The notes under the pieces are model-generated. The model did not search any database and was not told the DNA's origin. It saw nothing but the letters and a program-made list of their open reading frames with translations. Positions 694 through 64,000 of a stretch of 64,000 nt of DNA are shown in pieces. Each line of letters begins with the position of its first letter. Position 1 is the stretch's first letter. The position numbers were made by a program, and so were the translations under genes. This stretch comes from Nibricoccus sp. (GTDB lineage Bacteria > Verrucomicrobiota > Verrucomicrobiia > Opitutales > Opitutaceae): NCBI GenBank assembly GCA_047602425.1, contig JASGHG010000001.1:2880001-2944000 (forward strand), in the 5' to 3' direction.

Positions 694-1401
694 ATGCCTG
701 ATGAATCCTCGACCAAATTCCCGTATAGGAAATCTCTGTTGATCAAGCTCGCAATTGTGGGGAGCGTGGTGCTGCTGACGTTGGTTGTGGTGCTGCAATT
801 CTGGTCGGTAAAGGAGTTAATTGGGTTGACCAAAGGTGGGATTGAACGGGTGAAGACATGGGCGCAGACGGTGGGACCGGGGCCGTATTTTACGGCGATG
901 GCGGTGCTGCCGGCGGCGGGATTTCCGATCAGCGTATTTACGTTGATGGCGGGCGGATTGTTCGGTCCGCAAATCGGGCTCGGGTGGACGATCGTGTGGG
1001 CGTTGCTGGCGCTGGCTGTGAACATGGCGCTGACGTATTGGCTGGCTCGATACGCTTTGCGTCCCTTACTGGAAAAATTGATGCGGAAGATGGGGTATGA
1101 TTTGCCGCAGGTCTCAAAGGAAAATCATGCGAGCCTGACCTTGTTCATCCGTATCACGCCGGGCCCGCCTTATTTCGTGCAAGGTTACCTGCTCGGCCTC
1201 GCGGAGGTTCCTTTTGTCACTTACATGTGGTTGTCGTGGGTGTGCCAGGGTGGTTATGCGGTCGCCATGGTGGTGTTTGGGGACTCCTTGATGAAGGGCA
1301 ACGGCAAGATCGTTTTTTTGGCGGTGGGGATTTTAGTCGGATTGACAATCGCGGTCAAAATGATGCGTCGTCGGATGGCGCAGAAAAAGGGTGATGCGTG
1401 A
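694..1401 (+). CDS. TVP38/TMEM64 (VTT / DedA superfamily) membrane protein
   Basis: PAAGFPISVFTLMAGGLFG, RITPGPPY, YLLGL motifs; multiple TM helices. Start moved from 556 to ATG 694. Confidence 0.85.
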   Translation: MPDESSTKFPYRKSLLIKLAIVGSVVLLTLVVVLQFWSVKELIGLTKGGIERVKTWAQTVGPGPYFTAMAVLPAAGFPISVFTLMAGGLFGPQIGLGWTIVWALLALAVNMALTYWLARYALRPLLEKLMRKMGYDLPQVSKENHASLTLFIRITPGPPYFVQGYLLGLAEVPFVTYMWLSWVCQGGYAVAMVVFGDSLMKGNGKIVFLAVGILVGLTIAVKMMRRRMAQKKGDA

Positions 1402-2699
1402 AAATGGACGTCCAGCAAGACGGTGGTCTAGAGCAGGAACGAGCGCTGAGCGTGAGTGAATTCACCCGGTGCGTGAAGGAAGTGCTGGAGGGTGCGTTGC
1501 CGCCATGCTGGGTGCGGGGCGAGGTTTCCAACTTGCGGCAGCAGGCGAGTGGACATGTCTATTTTTCTATCAAGGATTCCGGGGCGCAGTTGTCGGCGGT
1601 GATGTTTCGCGGCGATGCGATGCGCCAGGGCATTATTCTGCGCGATGACCTGCAGGTTTTGGTTTATGGCAATGTGAGCGTTTACGAGGCGCGTGGTCAG
1701 TATCAGTTGGTGGTGCGTGCAGTGGTGGAGGATGGACACGGGCGTTTGCAGAGGGAGTTCGAGGCTCTAAAACGGCGGCTGGCCGACGAGGGTTTGTTTG
1801 CTTCGGAGCGGAAGGTGCCAGTGCCGACAATGCCGGCGGTCGTGGGATTTATCACGTCGCCCACGGGCGCGGCGGTGCAGGATTTTATTCGTATTCTGGC
1901 GCGGCGGGGCTGGCGGGGGCGATTGGTTGTGTTGCCTGCGAAGGTTCAAGGCGCGGGTGCGGCGGAGGAAATGATCGCACAACTACGGCTGGCGGAGGCA
2001 CTGGGGATTTTCGATCTGTTGGTGATCGGGCGCGGCGGCGGGAGCCTGGAGGATTTATGGGCGTTTAACGAAGAGCCTCTTGTGCGTGCTATTGCGGATT
2101 GCACGATACCGATTGTTTCGGCAGTGGGACACGAAATAGATTTTTCCTTATGCGACTTTGCGGCGGATGTGCGGGCGGAAACGCCGAGCGCGGCGGCAGA
2201 GTTGATTTCGAGCAGTTTCGTGGCATGTGCGGAACGATTGGCACGGCTGGCATGTTCGGTTGAGGATGCGATGGATCGCACGTTGAGCGAGGCGCGGGCG
2301 CGGGTGGAGCATGGAGCGAGCCGGCTTAGACTCCTGTCGCCAGCATCGGTGGTGGAGCACGGGCATTTGCGGGTGGACGATTTAACGAACCGAATGATAT
2401 CGGCAGTCGAGAGGGTTGTGCAATTGCGGCGTCACGGGTTGGGGCAAGCGGCGATGCGCTTTGCACGGTGCGGTCCGCAGGCGCGCGTCGAAGGCGAATC
2501 GCAGCGGCTATTGGCATTGTGGAAACGGCTGGAGTCCGCGAGTCCGGCATCGGTTTTAAAGCGCGGTTTTGTGATCATGCGCGATGAGGCGGGACGCCCA
2601 CTGGCGCGACGTTCCGAAGTCAAGCCAGGGCAACGGTTGCAGGCGCAATTTGGCGACGGAGTGGCGCCTTTGCGCGCCGAGGGCGTTAATGGAGAATGA
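1398..2699 (+). CDS. xseA: Exodeoxyribonuclease VII large subunit
   Basis: WVRGEVSN, SGHVYFSIKD, ITSPTGAA, RGGGSLEDLWAFNEE, SAVGHEID, RAETPSAAAE. Confidence 0.97.
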   Translation: MKMDVQQDGGLEQERALSVSEFTRCVKEVLEGALPPCWVRGEVSNLRQQASGHVYFSIKDSGAQLSAVMFRGDAMRQGIILRDDLQVLVYGNVSVYEARGQYQLVVRAVVEDGHGRLQREFEALKRRLADEGLFASERKVPVPTMPAVVGFITSPTGAAVQDFIRILARRGWRGRLVVLPAKVQGAGAAEEMIAQLRLAEALGIFDLLVIGRGGGSLEDLWAFNEEPLVRAIADCTIPIVSAVGHEIDFSLCDFAADVRAETPSAAAELISSSFVACAERLARLACSVEDAMDRTLSEARARVEHGASRLRLLSPASVVEHGHLRVDDLTNRMISAVERVVQLRRHGLGQAAMRFARCGPQARVEGESQRLLALWKRLESASPASVLKRGFVIMRDEAGRPLARRSEVKPGQRLQAQFGDGVAPLRAEGVNGE

Positions 2700-2780
2700 A
2701 GAACAGATAGCGTAGAATGTTGGAGGAAATTGGCGGTCGGCTGGAATAAATCGGCGAATGGAATACTCTCATAGAGAGCC

Positions 2781-3428
2781 ATGAACGCCGCGAAAATTCT
2801 CCCAACCACGATTTTATTGACCCTGCCTTTGCTTGCGATGGGGCTCCGTGCGGAAAACGATATGAAACCGAAAAACCAAATCAATTCTTCCTCGTCCGAA
2901 ACCTGCAAAATCGACAACGGCAAGTCCGCTTGCGGCCTGCCTTCGCAGGCGGTGATCGACATGACGCAAACCAAGGTGAAACGAACCGATGCCGAATGGC
3001 GAAAGCTGCTCACGCCGGAACAATATCGCGTGGCGCGTCAGCAGGGGACAGAACCGCCGTTTAGGAATGCATATTGGAATTCCCACGAGGATGGCGTGTT
3101 TTTTTCGGTGTGCAGTGAAACGCCGCTTTTTGACAGCCGCGACAAGTTCGATTCGGGCACGGGCTGGCCGAGCTTCACGAAACCGATTGAACCGGTTTTT
3201 GTCGGCGAATCGCGGGATAGTAGCCATGGCATGGTTCGGGTCGAGGTCCATTGCGCGGTGGACGGCGCGCATCTGGGACATGTTTTCCGTGATGGGCCTG
3301 AACCGACGGGTTTGCGCTACTGCATCAACTCCGCGTCGCTGCGCTTCATGCCGCGCAAGGAGTATGAGGCCTGGGTCGCAAAGAATTCTGAACGGGTCGC
3401 AAGCGCCACGCCGGAGCGAGCGCCGTAA
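2781..3428 (+). CDS. msrB: Peptide methionine-(R)-sulfoxide reductase with signal peptide
   Basis: [38 protein letters not shown]; hydrophobic N-terminus ending GLRA. Confidence 0.95.
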
Positions 3429-3431
3429 GCC

Positions 3432-4073
3432 CTATTCTTTGGACTTGGTAAGCCCGATCATTTTCACGAGCGAAAGGGTGTTGCCGATAATGCGTCCTCG
3501 CACGTCGGCGGACGTCGTGACGAATTCCTTGCGACCAACGAGCTTGCAGACCTCGCCATGAAAATAGCCATGAATGAGCTGGCCGGCCCAAATGAGCGCG
3601 TCCTCGCTAAGTGCATTTTTGGTGGTAGAGGTGATTTCGGCGGCGATCAATCGGGTCCAAAATACGCGCATTTCCTCAAGTCGCTTCATGATCTGGGGTG
3701 AAGGCTTGCCAGAAAGGGGTTCCAGCCAGAAGAGGCGATAGTGCGCGGGGTGGGCGAGCGAATAGTCGAGCTGGGTTTCGATGAAGTGGCGTAAAGGCGC
3801 GCTTTTGGCCGCGGGATTTTGCAGGCTGGCGAAAGTGTGATCCATGAGACGTTGCAAAGCGACGTCCAGGGCGGCCCAAAAAAGTTTTTCCAGCGAATCA
3901 AAATAGTTGTAGACGTTGGTGTGGGCGCAACGGGCCTGCGCGGCGATTTGGCGCAAATTCACGCCGCGGCATCCGTTGTTCTTCTCAATGAGGCGCAGGG
4001 TGATGTCGACCAGGCGTTTTTGGAGGGAGGCGGGCGCTGACTTGCGACGGGGGCGTTTCTTCTTGATTGGCAT
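3432..4073 (-). CDS. TetR/AcrR family transcriptional regulator
   Basis: N-terminal HTH VNLRQIAAQARCAHTNVYNYFDSLEKL. Confidence 0.9.
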   Translation of the reverse strand: MPIKKKRPRRKSAPASLQKRLVDITLRLIEKNNGCRGVNLRQIAAQARCAHTNVYNYFDSLEKLFWAALDVALQRLMDHTFASLQNPAAKSAPLRHFIETQLDYSLAHPAHYRLFWLEPLSGKPSPQIMKRLEEMRVFWTRLIAAEITSTTKNALSEDALIWAGQLIHGYFHGEVCKLVGRKEFVTTSADVRGRIIGNTLSLVKMIGLTKSKE

Positions 4074-4239
4074 CTAGGCGACGGTCGTTGCGAGGTGACC
4101 GAAGTGTCAAACGGAGCGACGTCGGATTTTTTAAGCGAAATTTCGTGGGGAATTTCCTTGGCCCCCCATTTGGAGTTTATTGTGCAGCCCACAAAAAAAT
4201 ATGCTGGGCGCATGGGAAGATTCGCGAAAAAATCCGCTG

Positions 4240-4950
4240 ATGTGTTGCCGCTATCTTCTCCACAAAGAGCATCTGAAAAAGGTGCTGGCGCAAATGGGCA
4301 TTCGAGTGCCGGAGATGGCGACACGTTATAATATCGCGCCGGGAACGAAAATTCCTGCGGTCCGAAAAACCTCCCGTGCGGAAACCGGGTGCGAGTTTGC
4401 AACATTGCGCTGGGGATTGGTGCCAGCGTGGTCGAAGGATGGTCCGCAGCAGGCGGGACTGGTCAATGCGAGGGTAGAGAGTCTGGAAATCAAAGCTTCT
4501 TTTCGCGAAGCATTTCGGGCGCGGCGTTGCTTGATTCCGGCGAGCGGGTTTTACGAGTGGAAAATTGCGGGGCGGGCGCGCTTGCCTTGGTTGTTTCAGC
4601 TGATCGATGACGAACCATTTTTCCTGGCAGGTTTATGGGAGTCTTGGGTGAGTCCGGACGGAACGCCGTGGGAAACCTGTGCCGTGATCACGACCGAGCC
4701 GAATCTTCTGATGCAGCCAATTCATCATCGCATGCCGGCCATCCTGGCGCTTGGAAGCGCCGAGGCATGGCTCGATCCTGCGGCGCGGACCGAGGAGTTG
4801 CGCGATTTGCTAAGGACCTTTCCGACTGAGCTGTTGAAAACGCGGCCGGTTTCGTTGCGGGTGAATTCCGCGGCAAACGACGATCCGGAATGTCTCCAAT
4901 CCGTGGATACGAACATGCCGGATGGAGGGCAGGGTATGCTGGCCTTGTGA
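4240..4950 (+). CDS. SOS response-associated peptidase (SRAP / YedK-HMCES family)
   Basis: Start MCCRY (Cys2), RYNIAP, RWGLVP, NARVE, RCLIPASGFYEW, IHHRMP. Confidence 0.93.
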   Translation: MCCRYLLHKEHLKKVLAQMGIRVPEMATRYNIAPGTKIPAVRKTSRAETGCEFATLRWGLVPAWSKDGPQQAGLVNARVESLEIKASFREAFRARRCLIPASGFYEWKIAGRARLPWLFQLIDDEPFFLAGLWESWVSPDGTPWETCAVITTEPNLLMQPIHHRMPAILALGSAEAWLDPAARTEELRDLLRTFPTELLKTRPVSLRVNSAANDDPECLQSVDTNMPDGGQGMLAL

Positions 4951-4967
4951 ACCGCCGCCGAGGCCAT

Positions 4968-5417
4968 TCAGCGCGAAATATCGCGTTGGGTAAGGACCTT
5001 GAAGCCGTGGTGGCCGAGCGATTGCGCAGCGACGTCGGCATCCTCGATGTTGAAGGCGAGAGCGGCTTTGCCTTCCGGACGTTTGATGAAGCTGTAGACG
5101 TAGTGGATGTTGATCTCGGCCTCGAAAAGCGCTGCGAGCACATCCTTGAACTGCGATTCACCCTCGATCTCGACCGCGAGAATCTCGCATTCGGTGTACG
5201 GGTAGTCGTTGTTGACGAAAAGCTCACGGGCTTTGTCGGGATCGTCGACGATGAGCCGAATGATCGTGCTGTCCGTCGTGTCGAGGATCGTGCAGGCCAT
5301 CACATGGACGTTATTGTTCTTCAATAGTGACGTCAGATCGTACAGGCGACCCACGCGATTCTCCGTGAAAACCGAGAACTGTTTGACCGGATCAATCGCG
5401 TTTGAAGTGCGGGCCAT
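4968..5417 (-). CDS. Tandem ACT-domain protein
   Basis: KQFSVFTENRVGRL...IRLIVDDPDKA...INIHYVYSF; start taken at MARTSN. Confidence 0.85.
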   Translation of the reverse strand: MARTSNAIDPVKQFSVFTENRVGRLYDLTSLLKNNNVHVMACTILDTTDSTIIRLIVDDPDKARELFVNNDYPYTECEILAVEIEGESQFKDVLAALFEAEINIHYVYSFIKRPEGKAALAFNIEDADVAAQSLGHHGFKVLTQRDISR

Positions 5418-5565
5418 GGGGAGAGACGAAGTTGTTGGCAGCGTGGAGGCAGCTGGTGCCCGGGTCAACTGCACGTATCGAATCTATTGCCCCGCAGCCT
5501 GCACGCATCTCCGAGGTTGCAATACGCGCGTATCGGGGAAACTGTTGGGCTTTCCACTATTTATC

Positions 5566-7158
5566 ATGCTGCGGAAGTTGTTCGCCAAAATACGCAAAAC
5601 CATCGGCGGTTCGTCCTCGTCCAAATCCGAGAAACCAAAACCTGCTCAATCTCACGGTTCTCACCGCGGCGCCGCCTCGCACGCCAAAAAGCCAGCTAAA
5701 GGTGGGCATCCCACGCAGGCACGTCACGAACAGTCGGAACAGGCTTCACGCGGCCCGCGACATAACAGCCCGAAGCAAAATGGTCCGAAACATGGTGGGC
5801 ACGGGGGCAAACCGCGCCACGAATCACATGGACCCTCGCGCGGGCACCATGGGTCTGCGTCCCGCGCTCCGCGTCCTCAGCGCGAAGAGCGCTATGAACC
5901 GCCGCACAGTGTCCACGTGCCGCCGCCGCCCGTCGACGTGCCGAAGATGGACAATGCTTTTTCCAAGCTCGGCCTCAACGACTCGCTCGCGTTTGCCGTC
6001 CAGGAAATGGGTTTTGTCGAACCAACACCCATCCAGCAACAAGCCATCCCGGTCGTGCTGGCCGGTGGCGATGTGATCGGGTCGGCCCAGACCGGCACGG
6101 GCAAAACCGCGGCCTTTGCGCTGCCGATTCTTCAACGCCTCGGCGGCCACGGAAAACTGCGCTGCCTGATTCTCGAACCTACACGCGAACTCGCGCTCCA
6201 AGTCGAGGAAGCATTTAAGAAGTTCAGCAAATTCACCGACCTGCGCGTGACCGTTGTGTATGGCGGTGTTGGATACGGCAAACAACGCGATGACCTGCGG
6301 CACGGCATGGATGTGCTAGCCGCGACTCCCGGCCGCCTGCTCGACCACATGGAACAGGGCGATGTTCGCCTCGACACGATCGACATTCTCGTGCTCGACG
6401 AAGTCGATCGCATGCTCGACATGGGTTTTCTACCGGACGTGAAGCGCATCGTGAACAAATGCCCGAAAGAGCGGCAGACGTTGTTCTTCACTGCCACGCT
6501 TCCGCCTGAAATCGCGTCGCTCGCAGGCTGGGCCTTGCGCAATCCAGTCGAGATCAAGATTGGCGCCCGCCGTTCACCCGCTGAGACGATCGCCCACGCT
6601 TTCTATCCCGTGGTCGAATCGCAAAAATTCGAGCTGCTGCAAGCCTTGTTGGAGCGCACGGACTACAAGAGCGTGATTATTTTCTCGCGCACGAAGTTTG
6701 GCGCCGACCGCATTGCCCGCCGGCTGCAAAAAGATCACTCCGTCGGTGTAATTCACTCAGATCGCAGCCAACGCGAACGCGTTGAAGCGCTCGAAGGTTT
6801 CAAGAGCGGGAAGTTCGAAGTGCTTGTCGCGACCGATATCGCGGCCCGGGGTCTCGATATCGCCGGCGTGTCGCATGTGATTAATTACGATGTGCCGGAG
6901 AATCCCGAGGACTATGTTCACCGCATCGGCCGTACGGGCCGCGCGCAAAACACAGGCGACGCTTTCACTCTGGTGACCGAGGAAAATGTTCGCGATGCCC
7001 GCTCGATTGAACGTTTCATCGGCACGGCCATCGAACGAAAGAAAATCGAGAATTTCCCGTACATCTATTCCGCGCTCTTCGACGACAAAGCGCTGGCTGA
7101 GTCGGCCGCCGCTGCCGCGAAGCCCACCAGCCGTCTGCATCGCGGCGCGCGACGCTGA
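5566..7158 (+). CDS. DEAD/DEAH-box RNA helicase (RhlE-like) with His/Gly/Arg-rich disordered N-terminus
   Basis: Q motif PTPIQ, AQTGTGKT, PTRELA, TPGRLLD, DEVD, TAT, ATDIAARGLD, YVHRIGRTGR; start at MLRKLF. Confidence 0.95.
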   Translation: MLRKLFAKIRKTIGGSSSSKSEKPKPAQSHGSHRGAASHAKKPAKGGHPTQARHEQSEQASRGPRHNSPKQNGPKHGGHGGKPRHESHGPSRGHHGSASRAPRPQREERYEPPHSVHVPPPPVDVPKMDNAFSKLGLNDSLAFAVQEMGFVEPTPIQQQAIPVVLAGGDVIGSAQTGTGKTAAFALPILQRLGGHGKLRCLILEPTRELALQVEEAFKKFSKFTDLRVTVVYGGVGYGKQRDDLRHGMDVLAATPGRLLDHMEQGDVRLDTIDILVLDEVDRMLDMGFLPDVKRIVNKCPKERQTLFFTATLPPEIASLAGWALRNPVEIKIGARRSPAETIAHAFYPVVESQKFELLQALLERTDYKSVIIFSRTKFGADRIARRLQKDHSVGVIHSDRSQRERVEALEGFKSGKFEVLVATDIAARGLDIAGVSHVINYDVPENPEDYVHRIGRTGRAQNTGDAFTLVTEENVRDARSIERFIGTAIERKKIENFPYIYSALFDDKALAESAAAAAKPTSRLHRGARR

Positions 7159-59079: not shown

Positions 59080-60495
59080 ATGAATTTAGTGAAAAAAATT
59101 TTGATCGTTCACGGCGATGCCAAGATGAAGCGTCGTCTCGTTTTGCTGCTGGCGGACGCGGGGTACGACTTGCGCGCATACACCGCGGGCGACCCCGCGC
59201 TTGAAACTGCGCGTGTCGAATGGTTCGACCTTGCCCTTGTGGATGCCTACCTGACCGGCCAGCCAAGTTTTGATTTTGTCGAGGCATTGAAAAAAGTTCA
59301 GCCCACGGTTCCGGTGGTCATGGTGGTTCCCCAACTCGAACTTCCCTTGATCGTGAAAGGCATTCGTATGGGCTTGAGCGACGTGCTTCCCACCACGGGC
59401 GACTTCCGTCCGCTCCTGCGGCGCGTCAACAACCTCCTCAGGCCGAACCAGGATATATCGACCATAGGGGAAAGCCTTACCTCCGCGGAGTTGGCCGACG
59501 CCGAGGCCGTGTTGCAGGTTCTCGGAAATCCCGAGATCGGCCAGAGTCAGGATCCCTTTAACGTGCCGGATGTTCGCGCCGAGCTCCTCAAAGGCGAAAA
59601 AGAACGCGCGCAGCTCGAGACCAAGATCGAACGCCTCGCGCACGAAAAGGCCGCCCTTGAGGCGGAGATGAAAACATTGCTCGCGCAAAATACCGACGCG
59701 GTTCGCATGCAGACCGAATTCAAGGATCTGCGCACGCAACGCGACATGGCCGCTGCGGCCCAAGCCATGATCGATCAGAAGGCGCGCGCCCTCGCCGACG
59801 CCCGCTCGGAACTTGCGCGTGAGCGCAGCCTGCTCGAAGAGGAGAGGCGGAAACTGGCCGAGACCACGCAGAAAATCGCTCCGGGTGGAAAAACGATTGA
59901 GGAACTTGCGAAGGAGAGAGCTGAATTCGACGCGATGCGCGCCAAGCATCTCGCCGACGAAGCGCGTTTGCGTGAAGAAGGCACGCGTCAGCAACACGAA
60001 GCCATGCAGATCGCACAGGAACGCCGTCGCTGGCATGAAGACCTCGACCTGCTCCGCGAGCAGGAAACCAATCTCCGCGAATACGAGGCTCGTCTGCGCC
60101 AATTGCAGGCCCAACTCGAGGCGGATCGAGTGCTTTGGTTCAGCTCCCGTCCGACTTCGCGTTCGCCGTTCCAGGACGACGCAGCCGTCAAAGCGGCGTG
60201 GGAAAAACTCCAGCGCGCGACCGATCTGCTCGAAGCCGAGCGCGCCGTTTTCCGTGACGAACGCATGGCGATGCGTGAGCTGGAAGCCGACATCAAACGT
60301 CGCGAAGCCAAACTGAACGAAGGCGATGCCGGCCTGGCCGACCACGATAAGCGTCTGCGCACCTTGATCACCACGACGCCGACCAACACGGCTCCCGGCA
60401 TTCCGGCTGGGGTTTCCATGGCAACGTCGCCGATGAAAATTCTCTCGAATCATCCTTTCGATCCGGCGAAATCCACGCCGACCCGCAAAGGCTGA
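59080..60495 (+). CDS. Atypical receiver domain fused to a long coiled coil
   Basis: KILIVHGD...FDLALVD...PVVMV...GLSDVLP followed by ~280 aa of E/R/A/L-rich heptads. Confidence 0.8.
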   Translation: MNLVKKILIVHGDAKMKRRLVLLLADAGYDLRAYTAGDPALETARVEWFDLALVDAYLTGQPSFDFVEALKKVQPTVPVVMVVPQLELPLIVKGIRMGLSDVLPTTGDFRPLLRRVNNLLRPNQDISTIGESLTSAELADAEAVLQVLGNPEIGQSQDPFNVPDVRAELLKGEKERAQLETKIERLAHEKAALEAEMKTLLAQNTDAVRMQTEFKDLRTQRDMAAAAQAMIDQKARALADARSELARERSLLEEERRKLAETTQKIAPGGKTIEELAKERAEFDAMRAKHLADEARLREEGTRQQHEAMQIAQERRRWHEDLDLLREQETNLREYEARLRQLQAQLEADRVLWFSSRPTSRSPFQDDAAVKAAWEKLQRATDLLEAERAVFRDERMAMRELEADIKRREAKLNEGDAGLADHDKRLRTLITTTPTNTAPGIPAGVSMATSPMKILSNHPFDPAKSTPTRKG

Positions 60496-60566
60496 GTTTC
60501 TTATAACCGCATTCAGTTTTTATTTGAGCTTGCCCAGCTTGGGCGGAGCTGTTGGTTTCCCGCACG

Positions 60567-60665
60567 ATGAATCTCGTCTCCAAACGTACAAATATGGTCT
60601 CCGCCTCCAAAGCGGTGCGTATTTGCACGCATGCATGGTGGCACGGAGTGGCTCGACGATGGTGA
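60567..60665 (+). CDS. Putative Trp-containing leader peptide (32 aa; 23 aa from ATG 60594)
   Basis: MNLVSKRTNMVSASKAVRICTHAWWHGVARRW*; tandem TGG TGG at 60636-60641, third TGG at 60660; directly precedes the antiterminator/terminator. Confidence 0.72.
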   Translation: MNLVSKRTNMVSASKAVRICTHAWWHGVARRW

Positions 60666-60758
60666 CGCGCGAAGATCGCGTCCGGTGTTAACGAAACCAA
60701 AAAATAAACACCCCTCCCGTCGAGCCCGACTCCAAACCGAGTCGGGCTTTTTATTTTT
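60645..60758 (+). promoter_or_regulatory. Transcription attenuator (antiterminator + intrinsic terminator)
   Basis: Terminator AGCCCGACTC-caaacc-GAGTCGGGCT-TTTTATTTTT (60723-60758). GGCTCGACG (60650-60658) is complementary to CGTCGAGCC (60718-60726), which overlaps the terminator 5' arm. Confidence 0.75.
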
Positions 60759-60823
60759 CCCGTCCGAACCTCGATAAAACCGCAAAGCCAGAAAGCTCAG
60801 ATTTTTCAAAACCACTTTATGTC

Positions 60824-61555
60824 ATGAATACCTCCCTTGCTCTCGCTCCCGCTCCTTCGCCGGTGGAACTGGATGTTCCCTCGATCGCGTTTTTCGGCCG
60901 CACCCTGGCCGAGTATGCGCAGTTTTTTTCCCTCGATATCGATGCTCTTGACGGCCTCTCGGTCCTCGATGTCGCCGCCGGTCCGTCGTCTTTCACGGCC
61001 GAAGCCTGTAGACGCGGCGCTGATGCCGTTGCGGTCGATCCGCTATACGGCTGCACCCTGCAAGCGTTGTCGGCACATGTCCAAATCGATTACCGGCGGA
61101 TGATCGAACAGATGCGGACCAAGCCGGAGTTGCTGCGCTTTCGGTCGTTCAAGTCGATCGACGAAGCCGAAAGCAGCCGGCGCACCGCGGCCGAAAGATT
61201 TTTGGCGGACTACGAACAGCACTTCGTGCACAACCGTTACATTGGCGCGGCGCTTCCACAGCTGCCGTTCCTCGACGGGGCCTTCGATCTGGTGCTTTGT
61301 GCGCATTTTCTTTTTGTCTACGCGAAGAAGTTCGGTTTCGAGTTTCATCTTGAGGCTTGCCGTGAGCTTGTGCGCGTGAGCAGCGATGAAGTGCGGATCC
61401 ACCCGGTGGTTGGTTTGGGCGGAAAGACCTACGCTGAACTCGACCGTTTGAGATCGGTGCTCGACGCCGAAGGAATCGAGAGCGAAGTCGTGCCGGTGGA
61501 ATACGAATTCTTCAAGGGCACCGACTCGATGCTGGTGCTGAAGCGTGGCGCGTGA
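60824..61555 (+). CDS. Class I SAM-dependent methyltransferase, uncharacterised family
   Basis: FFGRTLAEY..FF, VLDVAAGPSSF, AVDPLY, LPQLPFLDGAFDLVLCAHFLF, ELVRVS. Confidence 0.85.
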   Translation: MNTSLALAPAPSPVELDVPSIAFFGRTLAEYAQFFSLDIDALDGLSVLDVAAGPSSFTAEACRRGADAVAVDPLYGCTLQALSAHVQIDYRRMIEQMRTKPELLRFRSFKSIDEAESSRRTAAERFLADYEQHFVHNRYIGAALPQLPFLDGAFDLVLCAHFLFVYAKKFGFEFHLEACRELVRVSSDEVRIHPVVGLGGKTYAELDRLRSVLDAEGIESEVVPVEYEFFKGTDSMLVLKRGA

Positions 61556-61606: not shown

Positions 61607-62053
61607 ATGAATATCTGTTATGAAGTGGATCGGGTCATCTCTGAGGACCAGTTTATCGACTTGTTGCGACGCTCGACCTTGGCAGAACGCCGGCCGGTGG
61701 ACGACGTGCGCTGCATCCGCGCAATGCTGGAGCACGCCAACCTGCTTTGCACGGCGTGGGATGGGCCGAAGCTCGTCGGCGTGGCGCGATCACTGACCGA
61801 TTTTAAATACTGCTGCTATCTTTCCGACCTCGCGGTTGATGAAAGCTATCAGCGGAGCGGCATTGGCCGCGAACTCGTCCGACTGACAAGTTCTAAACTG
61901 GGTCCGCGGGCGAAAATAGTCCTGCTGGCCGCGCCGAAGGCCGAAGCCTATTATCCGAAAATCGGTTTTGAGGCGCATCGCTCTGCGTGGGCAATGCCGG
62001 CGTCACGGCTAGCGCGAGAAGTAAACCACATTCAAGAGGCATGGATGCATTGA
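61607..62053 (+). CDS. GNAT family N-acetyltransferase
   Basis: LVGVARSLTD, YLSDLAVDESYQRSGIGREL, YYPKIGF. Confidence 0.93.
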   Translation: MNICYEVDRVISEDQFIDLLRRSTLAERRPVDDVRCIRAMLEHANLLCTAWDGPKLVGVARSLTDFKYCCYLSDLAVDESYQRSGIGRELVRLTSSKLGPRAKIVLLAAPKAEAYYPKIGFEAHRSAWAMPASRLAREVNHIQEAWMH

Positions 62054-62118: not shown

Positions 62119-64000
62119 TTAGGCTTTTTCCATTTCCTCCAGCTTAGAGGCGGCCTGCTCCCAGTCGGCGGTGGCGGCGGTGATTTGATCGACGATGCTG
62201 CTGAGTTCCCGATTTAAATTCTGGGCTTTGCCGGGCGTGGAATAAGTTTCGGGCGCTTCCAACTCGGCGGTGAGTTCGGCTTGCTTTGCTTCCAACTCGG
62301 CAACGGCTTTTTCCAGCTGGCCAACTTTTTCGCGGAATTTGCGGATTTCGTTCGGGGTCGGCTTTTTTGCGCTCGAAGCTGCGGGTGTCGCTTTGGAATT
62401 TGAAATCTGCGCTTTGGAATTTGCAGCCGCCTGCACAGGGCGCCCATCGGTGAAACCGGCGGTGAGCGCGGCGCGGGCGTCGCTGGCTTTGGACTTTTCC
62501 AAATAGTAATCGTAGTCGCCGGCGTAAGGCGTCAGACGACCGGAATGGACGTGGAGAACATTCTGCGCGAGGGCACGGATGAAATGAACGTCGTGGCTGA
62601 TGAAAATGAGGGTACCTTCGTAGTTTTTCAGCGCGCTGATGAGCGAGTCGATCGACTGAATGTCGAGATGGGTGGTCGGCTCATCCATGAGCAGGAGATT
62701 CGGCGGCTTAACGAGAAGGCGGGCGAGGGCGAGGCGGGATTTTTCACCGCCGGAAAGAACATTGATGGGTTTGTGAACGTCGTCCTTGCGGAAGAGGAAG
62801 GCGCCGAGAATGGCTCTGGCTTGTTGTTCGGTGAGCTGATTTTCGTTAGTCCGCAGCGACATCACGTTTTCGAAAACGGTCAGATTGGGATCCAGGTTGT
62901 CGAGTCGGTTCTGCGCGAAGTAGCCGGGGACGACGTTGCTGCCGAGTTCACGCGTGCCGCCCTGAATGGGAATGACGTCGGCGAGGATTTTGAGCAGCGT
63001 GGATTTGCCGGCGCCATTGGGTCCGACGAGGACGATGCGCTGGCCGCGCTCGGCCGTGAAATTGAGATCCCGATAGACGACGTGATCGCCGTAGGCCTGT
63101 TGGACGTGTTCGAGTTCGATAACCTTGAGTCCGGAGCGCGGGGGTTGCGGGAATTTGAAATTCATTTTCCGCAACTCTTCGGTAGGTTCCTCGACGGCGA
63201 CTTCCTGAAGACGCTCGATTTGTTTTTCCTTAGACTTGGCGCGGGACGCCATGGAAGCCTTGGCACCGAAGCGATCGACGAATTTCTGAAGATGGGCGAT
63301 TTCGCGCTGTTGGTTTTTGAAGGCGGCGAGTTGTTGGGCTTTTCGGGCTTCTTTCTCGGTTAGGAAGTTGTCGTAGTTGCCGTGGTAGTAGTGAAGCGTG
63401 TTCGCGCGCAGTTCGAGCATGCCGGTGCAGAGCGCGTTGAGAAAGGCGCGGTCGTGGGAGATGACGACGAGGCCGCCGGGGTAGCGCGTGAGATAGTCCT
63501 GAAACCAGAGGAGGGCTTCGAGGTCGAGATGGTTGGTCGGTTCGTCGAGGAGGAGAAGGGCTGGTTCGGCAACGAGGAGGCGGGCAAGATGGGCGCGCAT
63601 GACCCAGCCGCCGGAAAACGTTTTCGCAAGTTTGAGAGCATCGCCTTCCTTGAAGCCAAGCCCGGCGAGGATTTTTTTTGCGCGCGGCTCGAGCGTGTAG
63701 TCGATGTCGTAGTCGTCGTCGGTCGGTTCGAGCTTTTTGCCGCTCGTCGCGATGTGGAGAATGGTTTCGTCGCCGGCGGGCGCGCTTTCCTGCGGAAGGA
63801 AACCGAAGTCGGCGCCGCGTTCCCATTCGATGGTGCCGGTGTCGGGTTTTTCCTCGCCGAGGATGAGATTGAACAGCGTGGATTTCCCGGCGCCATTGGG
63901 GCCGATCAGGCCGAGGCGGTCGGTGCGGGCAATGAAGAGCGACACGTCGCGAAAAAGTTCGCGCGTACCATAGGACTTGGAGACATCGGCGATCGTAAGC
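62119..64000 (-). CDS. ABC-F family ribosome-associated ATPase (start codon cut by the window edge)
   Basis: Two ABC cassettes (GPNGAGKST, FSGGW/LSGGE, LDEPTNHLD/MDEPTTHLD, SHD), no TM, C-terminal coiled coil; frame stays open to 64000 (LTIADVSKSYG). Confidence 0.95.
   Translation of the reverse strand, partial: LTIADVSKSYGTRELFRDVSLFIARTDRLGLIGPNGAGKSTLFNLILGEEKPDTGTIEWERGADFGFLPQESAPAGDETILHIATSGKKLEPTDDDYDIDYTLEPRAKKILAGLGFKEGDALKLAKTFSGGWVMRAHLARLLVAEPALLLLDEPTNHLDLEALLWFQDYLTRYPGGLVVISHDRAFLNALCTGMLELRANTLHYYHGNYDNFLTEKEARKAQQLAAFKNQQREIAHLQKFVDRFGAKASMASRAKSKEKQIERLQEVAVEEPTEELRKMNFKFPQPPRSGLKVIELEHVQQAYGDHVVYRDLNFTAERGQRIVLVGPNGAGKSTLLKILADVIPIQGGTRELGSNVVPGYFAQNRLDNLDPNLTVFENVMSLRTNENQLTEQQARAILGAFLFRKDDVHKPINVLSGGEKSRLALARLLVKPPNLLLMDEPTTHLDIQSIDSLISALKNYEGTLIFISHDVHFIRALAQNVLHVHSGRLTPYAGDYDYYLEKSKASDARAALTAGFTDGRPVQAAANSKAQISNSKATPAASSAKKPTPNEIRKFREKVGQLEKAVAELEAKQAELTAELEAPETYSTPGKAQNLNRELSSIVDQITAATADWEQAASKLEEMEKA

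Follow-up and report, generated by a model that had tools for sequence, protein, structure and literature searches.

A tryptophan-codon leader ahead of an orphan methyltransferase gene in Opitutales: a probable transcription attenuator

An orphan methyltransferase gene and its neighbours

The window, by which we mean the whole 64,000-nucleotide stretch of DNA analysed here, belongs to a Nibricoccus sp. genome assembled as a single contig of 5.16 Mb. It carries a receiver-domain gene followed on the same strand by a short leader open reading frame (ORF), an intrinsic terminator and a gene for a 243-residue protein, behind which lie genes for a GNAT acetyltransferase and an ABC-F-type ATPase (Table 1).

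Table 1. Features of the methyltransferase locus, in window positions.
Feature	Position	Strand	Remarks
Receiver-domain gene	59080-60495	+	receiver domain, then long coiled coil; no output domain recognised; upstream of the leader
Predicted promoter	60530-60558	+	-35-like TTGCCC at 60530-60535; weak -10 near 60553-60558
Leader ORF, 32 aa	60567-60665	+	ATG start; variable N-terminal part, Trp codons near the end; peptide ends in CTHAWWHGVARRW, then stop
Control Trp codons (WW)	60636-60641	+	5 and 4 codons ahead of the antiterminator strand
Antiterminator 5' strand	60650-60658	+	last leader codons (A-R-R); GGCTCGACG; predicted to pair with 60718-60726
CGA-TGG (Arg-Trp) codon pair	60657-60662	+	before the stop; conserved
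Two small hairpins	60664-60682, 60684-60712	+	predicted fold, within the antiterminator loop; sequence poorly conserved
Antiterminator 3' strand	60718-60726	+	CGTCGAGCC; overlaps the terminator stem base
Intrinsic terminator	60722-60758	+	stem-loop and U-tract, -20.1 kcal/mol
Class I SAM-dependent methyltransferase-fold protein, 243 aa	60824-61555	+	orphan; 0 Trp; pI 5.1; helical insertion at residues 79-136
GNAT acetyltransferase	61607-62053	+	Pfam; 51 nt downstream of the methyltransferase gene
ABC-F-type ATPase	62119-63945	-	frequent downstream neighbour in relatives

The 243-residue protein scored above the cut-off for Pfam Methyltransf_11 (PF08241; E 1.2e-5), and its structure was predicted as a class I methyltransferase fold with a pLDDT of 96.6. 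The model and its fold matches presented a Rossmann-type fold in which strands 1 and 2 are marked by acidic and glycine motifs, and in the alignment G53 was kept in 154 of 156 proteins and D72 in all 156. Judged by its modelled fold and these motifs, the protein is probably a SAM-dependent class I methyltransferase. The fold search gave a best VIA-align Z of 12.2 with an rmsd of 3.4-3.8 and a TM score of at most 0.48; the top matches were tied, generic methyltransferases, and those at tied Z included protein and RNA methyltransferases. A PDB sequence search returned no match to the protein, profile matches were weak (best YcgJ, E 0.0013), and the ESM Atlas offered unnamed methyltransferase clusters only. 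Known resistance methyltransferases did not stand out among the sequence and fold matches, although the absence of a family from the fold matches does not amount to its exclusion, and none of the NCBIfam rRNA resistance methyltransferase families matched near its cut-off. The acidic pI fits a non-RNA substrate; the median pI of the leader-bearing proteins was 6.4. The family also occurs in Bacillota, cyanobacteria, Planctomycetota, Actinomycetota and archaea. Four orthologs (L071, L072, L077 and L095) have gained or lost codons in frame at about residues 105-120, a region within the helical insertion.

The GNAT gene is possibly co-transcribed with the methyltransferase gene, and no terminator-like site was found between the two; this gene was not seen directly behind the methyltransferase at other leader-bearing orthologs. 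At 20 of 91 loci an ABM-family gene overlaps the methyltransferase stop through ATGA (for example L003:1157-1492). Most copies of this gene encode 3 Trp, and none was found in the Nibricoccus genome with that query. Of 12 loci in further Opitutales families, 6 (L128, L134, L141, L081, L082 and L253) have a PhzF-like gene directly behind the methyltransferase; the PhzF-like gene is fused to DJ-1/PfpI twice, and L253 adds a gene resembling pyridoxamine-phosphate oxidase. The coupled ABM and PhzF proteins are not poor in Trp, with 2-9 residues each. An aminotransferase that appeared as a neighbour proved to be a clustering artefact. In some Planctomycetota (L147, L149, L159 and L167) the homolog sits directly behind a second, unrelated methyltransferase gene.

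Leader ORF, antiterminator and terminator

The first-pass annotation had reported the leader ORF with its tandem Trp codons and a third Trp codon (60660-60662) just before the stop, and all of these coordinates were confirmed. Across 85 leaders, a TTG[CAT] motif stood 36-39 nt ahead of an in-frame ATG or GTG in 76 motif-start pairs versus 8 off-frame, and the distance at the Nibricoccus leader is 37 nt. This spacing suggests that the start codon lies at or near the 5' end of the transcript; the leader mRNA thus looks near-leaderless, starting at or just before the ATG at 60567. A sigma-70 scan did not flag the promoter region of Table 1.

Fifty-seven leaders, chosen for diversity out of 86 extracted, were aligned. 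Trp occupied the two control positions in 40 and 41 of them, and between one and three Trp codons were found at codon positions -7 to -3 relative to the antiterminator strand in all 57, a count obtained with an extraction pattern that itself requires a Trp and at loci picked via the methyltransferase. In 4 leaders missed by this pattern, Trp was present too on reading by eye. The control site holds one Trp codon in 17 leaders, two in 31 and three in 9, so the conserved WW uORF anticipated at first stood as a conserved Trp leader with both helices, and the WW pair itself is not invariant. The part of these orthologous leaders that precedes the control site, 741 codons in all, held a single Trp codon and no stop. 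The residues ahead of the Trp codons vary freely, including those at -14 to -7, and no conserved arrest peptide ahead of the stall site was present in the aligned leaders. From this pattern of conservation, the leader is, by all appearances, a coding sensor sequence.

The end of the leader is conserved in a different manner. Arg at +2 is invariant (57/57), and CGA supplies 78 of the 81 Arg codons that precede a late Trp codon, compared with 8% of Arg codons genome-wide. Trp codons also fall inside the antiterminator strand in 26 of the 57 leaders and after it in 46. An ATG overlaps the leader end and opens no conserved second ORF.

The intrinsic terminator had been placed 65 nt before the methyltransferase ATG at 60824, and a scanner returned an 11-pair stem at 60722-60749 with a U-tract reaching 60758. 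The competing segment proposed in the last leader codons also held up in its core: the pairing of GGCTCGACG with CGTCGAGCC is conserved, across a loop of about 60 nt, and shares with the terminator stem only its lowest 3-5 nt. Its suggested extension, GGAGT against ACTCC, is real in Nibricoccus; however, it is not conserved in the alignment and would be mostly covered by a ribosome that stalls on the Trp codons. In the 57 leaders the antiterminator helix was paired in 89.9% of cells with 42 double changes, and the terminator helix in 94.3% with 40; none of 500 shuffles scored as high for either helix, in a control that ignores kinship and whose counts are not probabilities. Slid controls were paired at 21-49%. 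Within the loop, the hairpin at 60664-60682 is a candidate polymerase pause hairpin.

A census of the Nibricoccus genome yielded 455 terminator-like hairpins. For only 4 of them was there a segment able to form 8 or more Watson-Crick pairs with sequence overlapping the 5' arm, and among these 4 only the one at 60722-60758 also had a Trp codon of a short ORF in place. The arrangement of leader, antiterminator and terminator is more than chance.

Predicted folding of the nascent RNA under a ribosome mask gave, for Nibricoccus, an antiterminator probability of 1.0 with the ribosome at either W1 or W2 and of 0.0 with the ribosome at the last W or the stop. Over the 57 leaders, the median was 0.98 at the control Trp (above 0.5 in 43) and 0.0 at the last Trp or stop. 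In these predictions the nascent RNA switched as the first-pass annotation expected, whereas in the full-length equilibrium fold the terminator dominated in every ribosome state (P 0.92-1.0), which implies that the switch must be kinetic. No 1:2 protector hairpin was predicted in the leaders, and the ribosome-free antiterminator had a probability above 0.5 in 49 of 57; any block to leader translation would therefore be expected to induce as well.

Distribution, Trp content and trp genes

The methyltransferase gene was found in 78 of 151 genomes of the family and in 33 of 301 genomes of the phylum. It is single-copy and apparently vertical, occurs in 40 of 63 genera and keeps its synteny. When all upstream DNA was read, the leader preceded 71 of the 78 family genes; the remaining 7 comprise 3 of a distant subtype (Pro-Trp-Gly-Arg start) and 4 fragments or broken genes. 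Among 80 loci from a contig database, the leader was present in all 29 labelled Verrucomicrobiota or Opitutales, 12 of which duplicate family loci, and in none of the 51 loci with homologs outside Opitutales (Planctomycetota, Chloroflexota, Nitrospirota, Melainabacteria, archaea and others; 21 read by eye). One pattern match among these 51 (L144) was judged spurious. In the loci compared, the leader is restricted to Opitutales. It persists together with its hairpin where the upstream gene differs or points away (L006, L008, L025 and L029).

A covariance model, R1, was built from the 57 aligned leaders and searched against 150 family genomes. There were 73 matches at E<=1e-7, of which 71 adjoin the methyltransferase gene, many of them training sequences that match by construction, and 2 precede a trpEGD(CBA) operon. 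At the level of the order, three matches outside the training set (L253, L256 and L259) combine a Trp leader with the methyltransferase, and two (L258 and L260) occur without it; two matches in the wider phylum were weak (L250 and L251, E 5e-5 and 9e-5). The best 20 weaker matches away from the methyltransferase consisted of the 2 trp-operon leaders, 17 ordinary-looking terminators without a Trp leader and 1 Thr-rich case (L206). No relative was found in viral contigs. L206 (G115:C9 113794-113889, - strand) pairs a Thr-rich short ORF with a terminator and is likely a Thr/Ile-type attenuator. In the Nibricoccus genome, near 504649 of G000:C1 (+ strand), a Val/Leu-rich short ORF is followed by a strong terminator, likely a branched-chain amino-acid attenuator.

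The methyltransferase of the window contains no Trp, as first annotated, which alone is weak evidence because 253 of 2498 243-residue chunks cut from long ORFs of the same genome (about 10%, in a crude ORF set) were likewise Trp-free. In the suggested comparison with homologs that lack the leader, after fragments, frame problems and duplicates had been left out, 58 of 91 leader-bearing proteins were Trp-free versus 4 of 65 without the leader. At the F106 column, Trp was found in none of the 91 leader-bearing proteins, compared with 38 of 44 aligned residues in leaderless homologs (21 gaps). Depletion is partial, since 27 of the 91 carry Trp at F174, and it represents about three lineages, as a quick, unfinished tree (118 rows) explains the leader label with only three changes.

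The two R1 matches ahead of trp operons, in genomes G082 and G059, lie outside the training set, and the methyltransferase was found in neither genome, whose assemblies are fragmented and 76% and 84% complete, respectively. Both leaders share the helices and the promoter-like spacing of the others; their Trp codons, WW or WWW, are kept, and the CGA-TGG end is lost. They end 9 nt before a TrpE-like gene that is followed by trpG and trpD; in G059 the operon continues with trpC, trpB and trpA, and trpF lies on the other strand. The TrpE-like proteins scored 377 and 383 bits against TIGR00564, whose cut-off is 518. They share about 40% identity with Nibricoccus TrpE, compared with 52-68% for the genes flanking the G059 operon and their Nibricoccus counterparts. 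This divergent, compact trpE-G-D-(C-B-A) operon (L195/L262, G059:C118 about 900-6740; L194, G082:C103 6340-9333) seems to replace the scattered trp genes in both genomes, each of which gave one TrpE match.

In Nibricoccus the trp genes are scattered, with trpE directly behind glmS and one trpS. The search for TrpR in this genome was negative, and none of its trpE, G, D, C, B, A and trpS was seen to have a Trp leader. R1 gave one match there; the Nibricoccus trpE, pabB-like and trpB loci and 28 ordinary trpE loci gave none. The methyltransferase leader is the only Trp attenuator found in the Nibricoccus genome. No trp gene lies near the methyltransferase in leader-bearing loci, and the gene did not co-occur with TrpB2 (about 19 of 35 TrpB2 genomes versus 78 of 151 overall).

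Proposed mechanism, enzyme role and known systems

Ribosome-mediated Trp attenuation, the layout recognised in the first-pass annotation, is what the anatomy of the leader, its conservation, covariation and codon placement, and its position before the trp operon in two relatives support. We propose that the locus is a transcription attenuator that turns the methyltransferase on when charged tRNA-Trp is scarce, and we put the probability of this reading at roughly 0.8. The transcript would begin at about the leader ATG. In cells with sufficient Trp, the ribosome would reach the CGA-TGG-stop end and cover 60650-60658, and the terminator would form. With Trp-tRNA in short supply, it would stall at 60636-60641 and leave 60650-60658 free to pair with 60718-60726; the antiterminator would then hold three pairs at the base of the terminator stem, and polymerase would read into the methyltransferase gene. 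The CGA-TGG pair may slow translation locally and so detain the ribosome on the antiterminator strand for as long as polymerase needs to traverse the 60-nt loop. Leader translation, stalling, kinetic switching and induction under Trp shortage are all highly probable on this evidence. A stall at the late Trp codons, inside or after the antiterminator strand, would be predicted to favour termination and thereby work against induction.

Several other readings of the locus were weighed. The hairpin might be the mere terminator of the receiver-domain gene, which does lie upstream on the same strand at 56 loci, with the short ORF present by chance. However, the hairpin lies 227 nt past the stop of that gene, leader and hairpin are kept where the upstream gene is another or points away, the antiterminator covaries, and promoter-like spacing is conserved before the leader. 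Covariation, the R1 matches and Trp-codon placement contradict this explanation, whose chance is negligible, and it was rejected. A general sensor of ribosome stalling or antibiotics, or an arrest peptide sensing Arg/CGA or RRW with the Trp codons incidental, would agree with the folding of the untranslated leader into the antiterminator and with the invariant Arg at +2 and its nearly invariant CGA codon. The antiterminator strand, however, includes those Arg codons or ends at them, so that a ribosome stalled there would cause termination; the leader peptide ahead of the Trp codons varies, the Trp run varies from one to three at a fixed distance, and the two trp-operon leaders keep the Trp codons without the CGA-TGG end. 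We consider such a sensor quite improbable, and the drug-sensing stalling leader that had been offered as an alternative is, in its general form, much weakened by the trp-operon placement and the conservation of the Trp codons.

Two further explanations retain the Trp-tRNA sensor and differ in the task of the enzyme. It may methylate and inactivate Trp analogues or tryptophanyl-tRNA synthetase (TrpRS) inhibitors of the indolmycin type, with the leader sensing the drug via uncharged tRNA-Trp. The anatomy would look the same under starvation and under TrpRS inhibition, the Nibricoccus genome has a single trpS, plasmid homologs sit among DJ-1/PfpI, GNAT, DinB, MarR and TetR genes, and the resistant trpRS1 of Streptomyces coelicolor reportedly has a Trp-codon attenuator. 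Against drug inactivation, a single-copy, apparently vertical gene with conserved synteny fits core physiology, the six plasmid homologs lack the leader-type Trp depletion (1-2 W), and the sequence and fold matches bring no known resistance methyltransferase to the fore; we regard it as unlikely. The attenuator may also serve as a proxy for general amino-acid starvation, with a target outside Trp metabolism, for instance a protein or a translation component. The absence of trp genes near the methyltransferase and of a TrpB2 link, the protein and RNA methyltransferases among the tied fold matches, and the leaderless homologs in archaea, Bacillota and cyanobacteria are in keeping with such a target. 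Nevertheless, an otherwise conserved Trp was lost in all leader-bearing lineages, which argues that the protein must be made under Trp shortage specifically, and the same leader serves the trp operon elsewhere, so we hold this possibility to be improbable to a similar degree.

Under the preferred reading, our guess at the reaction draws on the coupled genes for small-molecule enzymes (ABM and PhzF), on the chemistry of PhzF, which acts on an anthranilate-related chorismate product, and on the analogy with yeast Tmt1. Tentatively, and with rather less than even confidence, the enzyme may methylate a small molecule, disposing of or rerouting an aromatic intermediate that accumulates in Trp shortage, in cells whose trp genes have neither TrpR nor a leader. 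A role in Trp or indole salvage is likewise a guess. A more far-reaching and more doubtful idea is that Opitutales leave their scattered trp genes without Trp control and devote their one Trp sensor to the methyltransferase instead. The enzyme might then be the effector of an undescribed Trp-starvation response, methylating a molecule or enzyme of the anthranilate or indole pathway as a substitute for TrpR-type regulation; alternatively, it might be a new enzyme of resistance to TrpRS inhibitors. The leader would be a portable module exchanged between the trp operon and the methyltransferase gene.

An amino-acid attenuator usually signals that the genes behind it serve to make, import or charge that amino acid. 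In the complete Nibricoccus genome, the one Trp attenuator that was found apparently controls an enzyme of otherwise unassigned function, and the leader is the first physiological clue for a widespread methyltransferase family that has no close solved structure. The leader family is new, apparently near-leaderless and without a predicted protector hairpin, in a phylum for which our searches found no attenuator described; new in the present analysis are its placement before a trp operon, the apparent start close to the transcript 5' end, the lack of a predicted protector and its confinement to Opitutales in the loci compared. The literature search returned no description of this leader, with subscription papers on comparative attenuator genomics and bioRxiv supplements lying outside its range, where a prior mention is possible; PMC2965389 mentions neither Opitutus nor Verrucomicrobia in its text or in one supplement. 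We conclude that this is a new leader family of the classical Trp-attenuation mechanism, not found in the papers searched.

The closest known design is E. coli trpL. The Rfam Trp_leader model RF00513 gave a weak full-length match at 60630-60755 (22.9 bits, E 0.03), below its gathering score of 41, so the Opitutales leader is predicted to work like trpL without being a member of RF00513. Both share a short ORF with Trp codons, an antiterminator overlapping an intrinsic terminator and the same predicted logic. In contrast to trpL, the Opitutales leader is longer (about 25-40 codons), apparently starts at the transcript 5' end, has no predicted 1:2 protector, spaces its antiterminator strands by about 60 nt and usually targets an orphan methyltransferase instead of trpE. 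The drug-inducible leaders of erm-type rRNA methyltransferases are distinguished by a conserved arrest peptide, which the aligned Opitutales leaders do not have. For the enzyme, yeast Tmt1, a trans-aconitate methyltransferase, is an example of a small-molecule methyltransferase linked to amino-acid starvation that, according to PMC3197675, methylates an intermediate of the leucine pathway; it serves as an analogy for the enzyme role only, with no homology shown and a different regulation.

Leaderless sensory ORFs are also found in mycobacteria, where, according to bioRxiv 10.1101/834739, polycysteine short ORFs control downstream genes, some of them not obviously biosynthetic. That system senses Cys and is translational, sequestering a ribosome-binding site, whereas the Opitutales leader combines Trp codons with a transcription terminator. 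Actinobacterial trp and trpS attenuators, as described in PMC1262725, have double or triple UGG codons, a GC-rich terminator with a U-tract and three short complementary segments common to antiterminator and terminator, and the Gly-Gly-Cys-type triple design of the Opitutales helices, with its hold on three pairs at the base of the terminator stem, matches them. Compared with these attenuators, 17 of the 57 Opitutales leaders have a single control Trp; and whereas those actinobacterial examples precede trp operons or trpS2, 71 of the 73 strong family matches to the Opitutales leader precede the methyltransferase gene.
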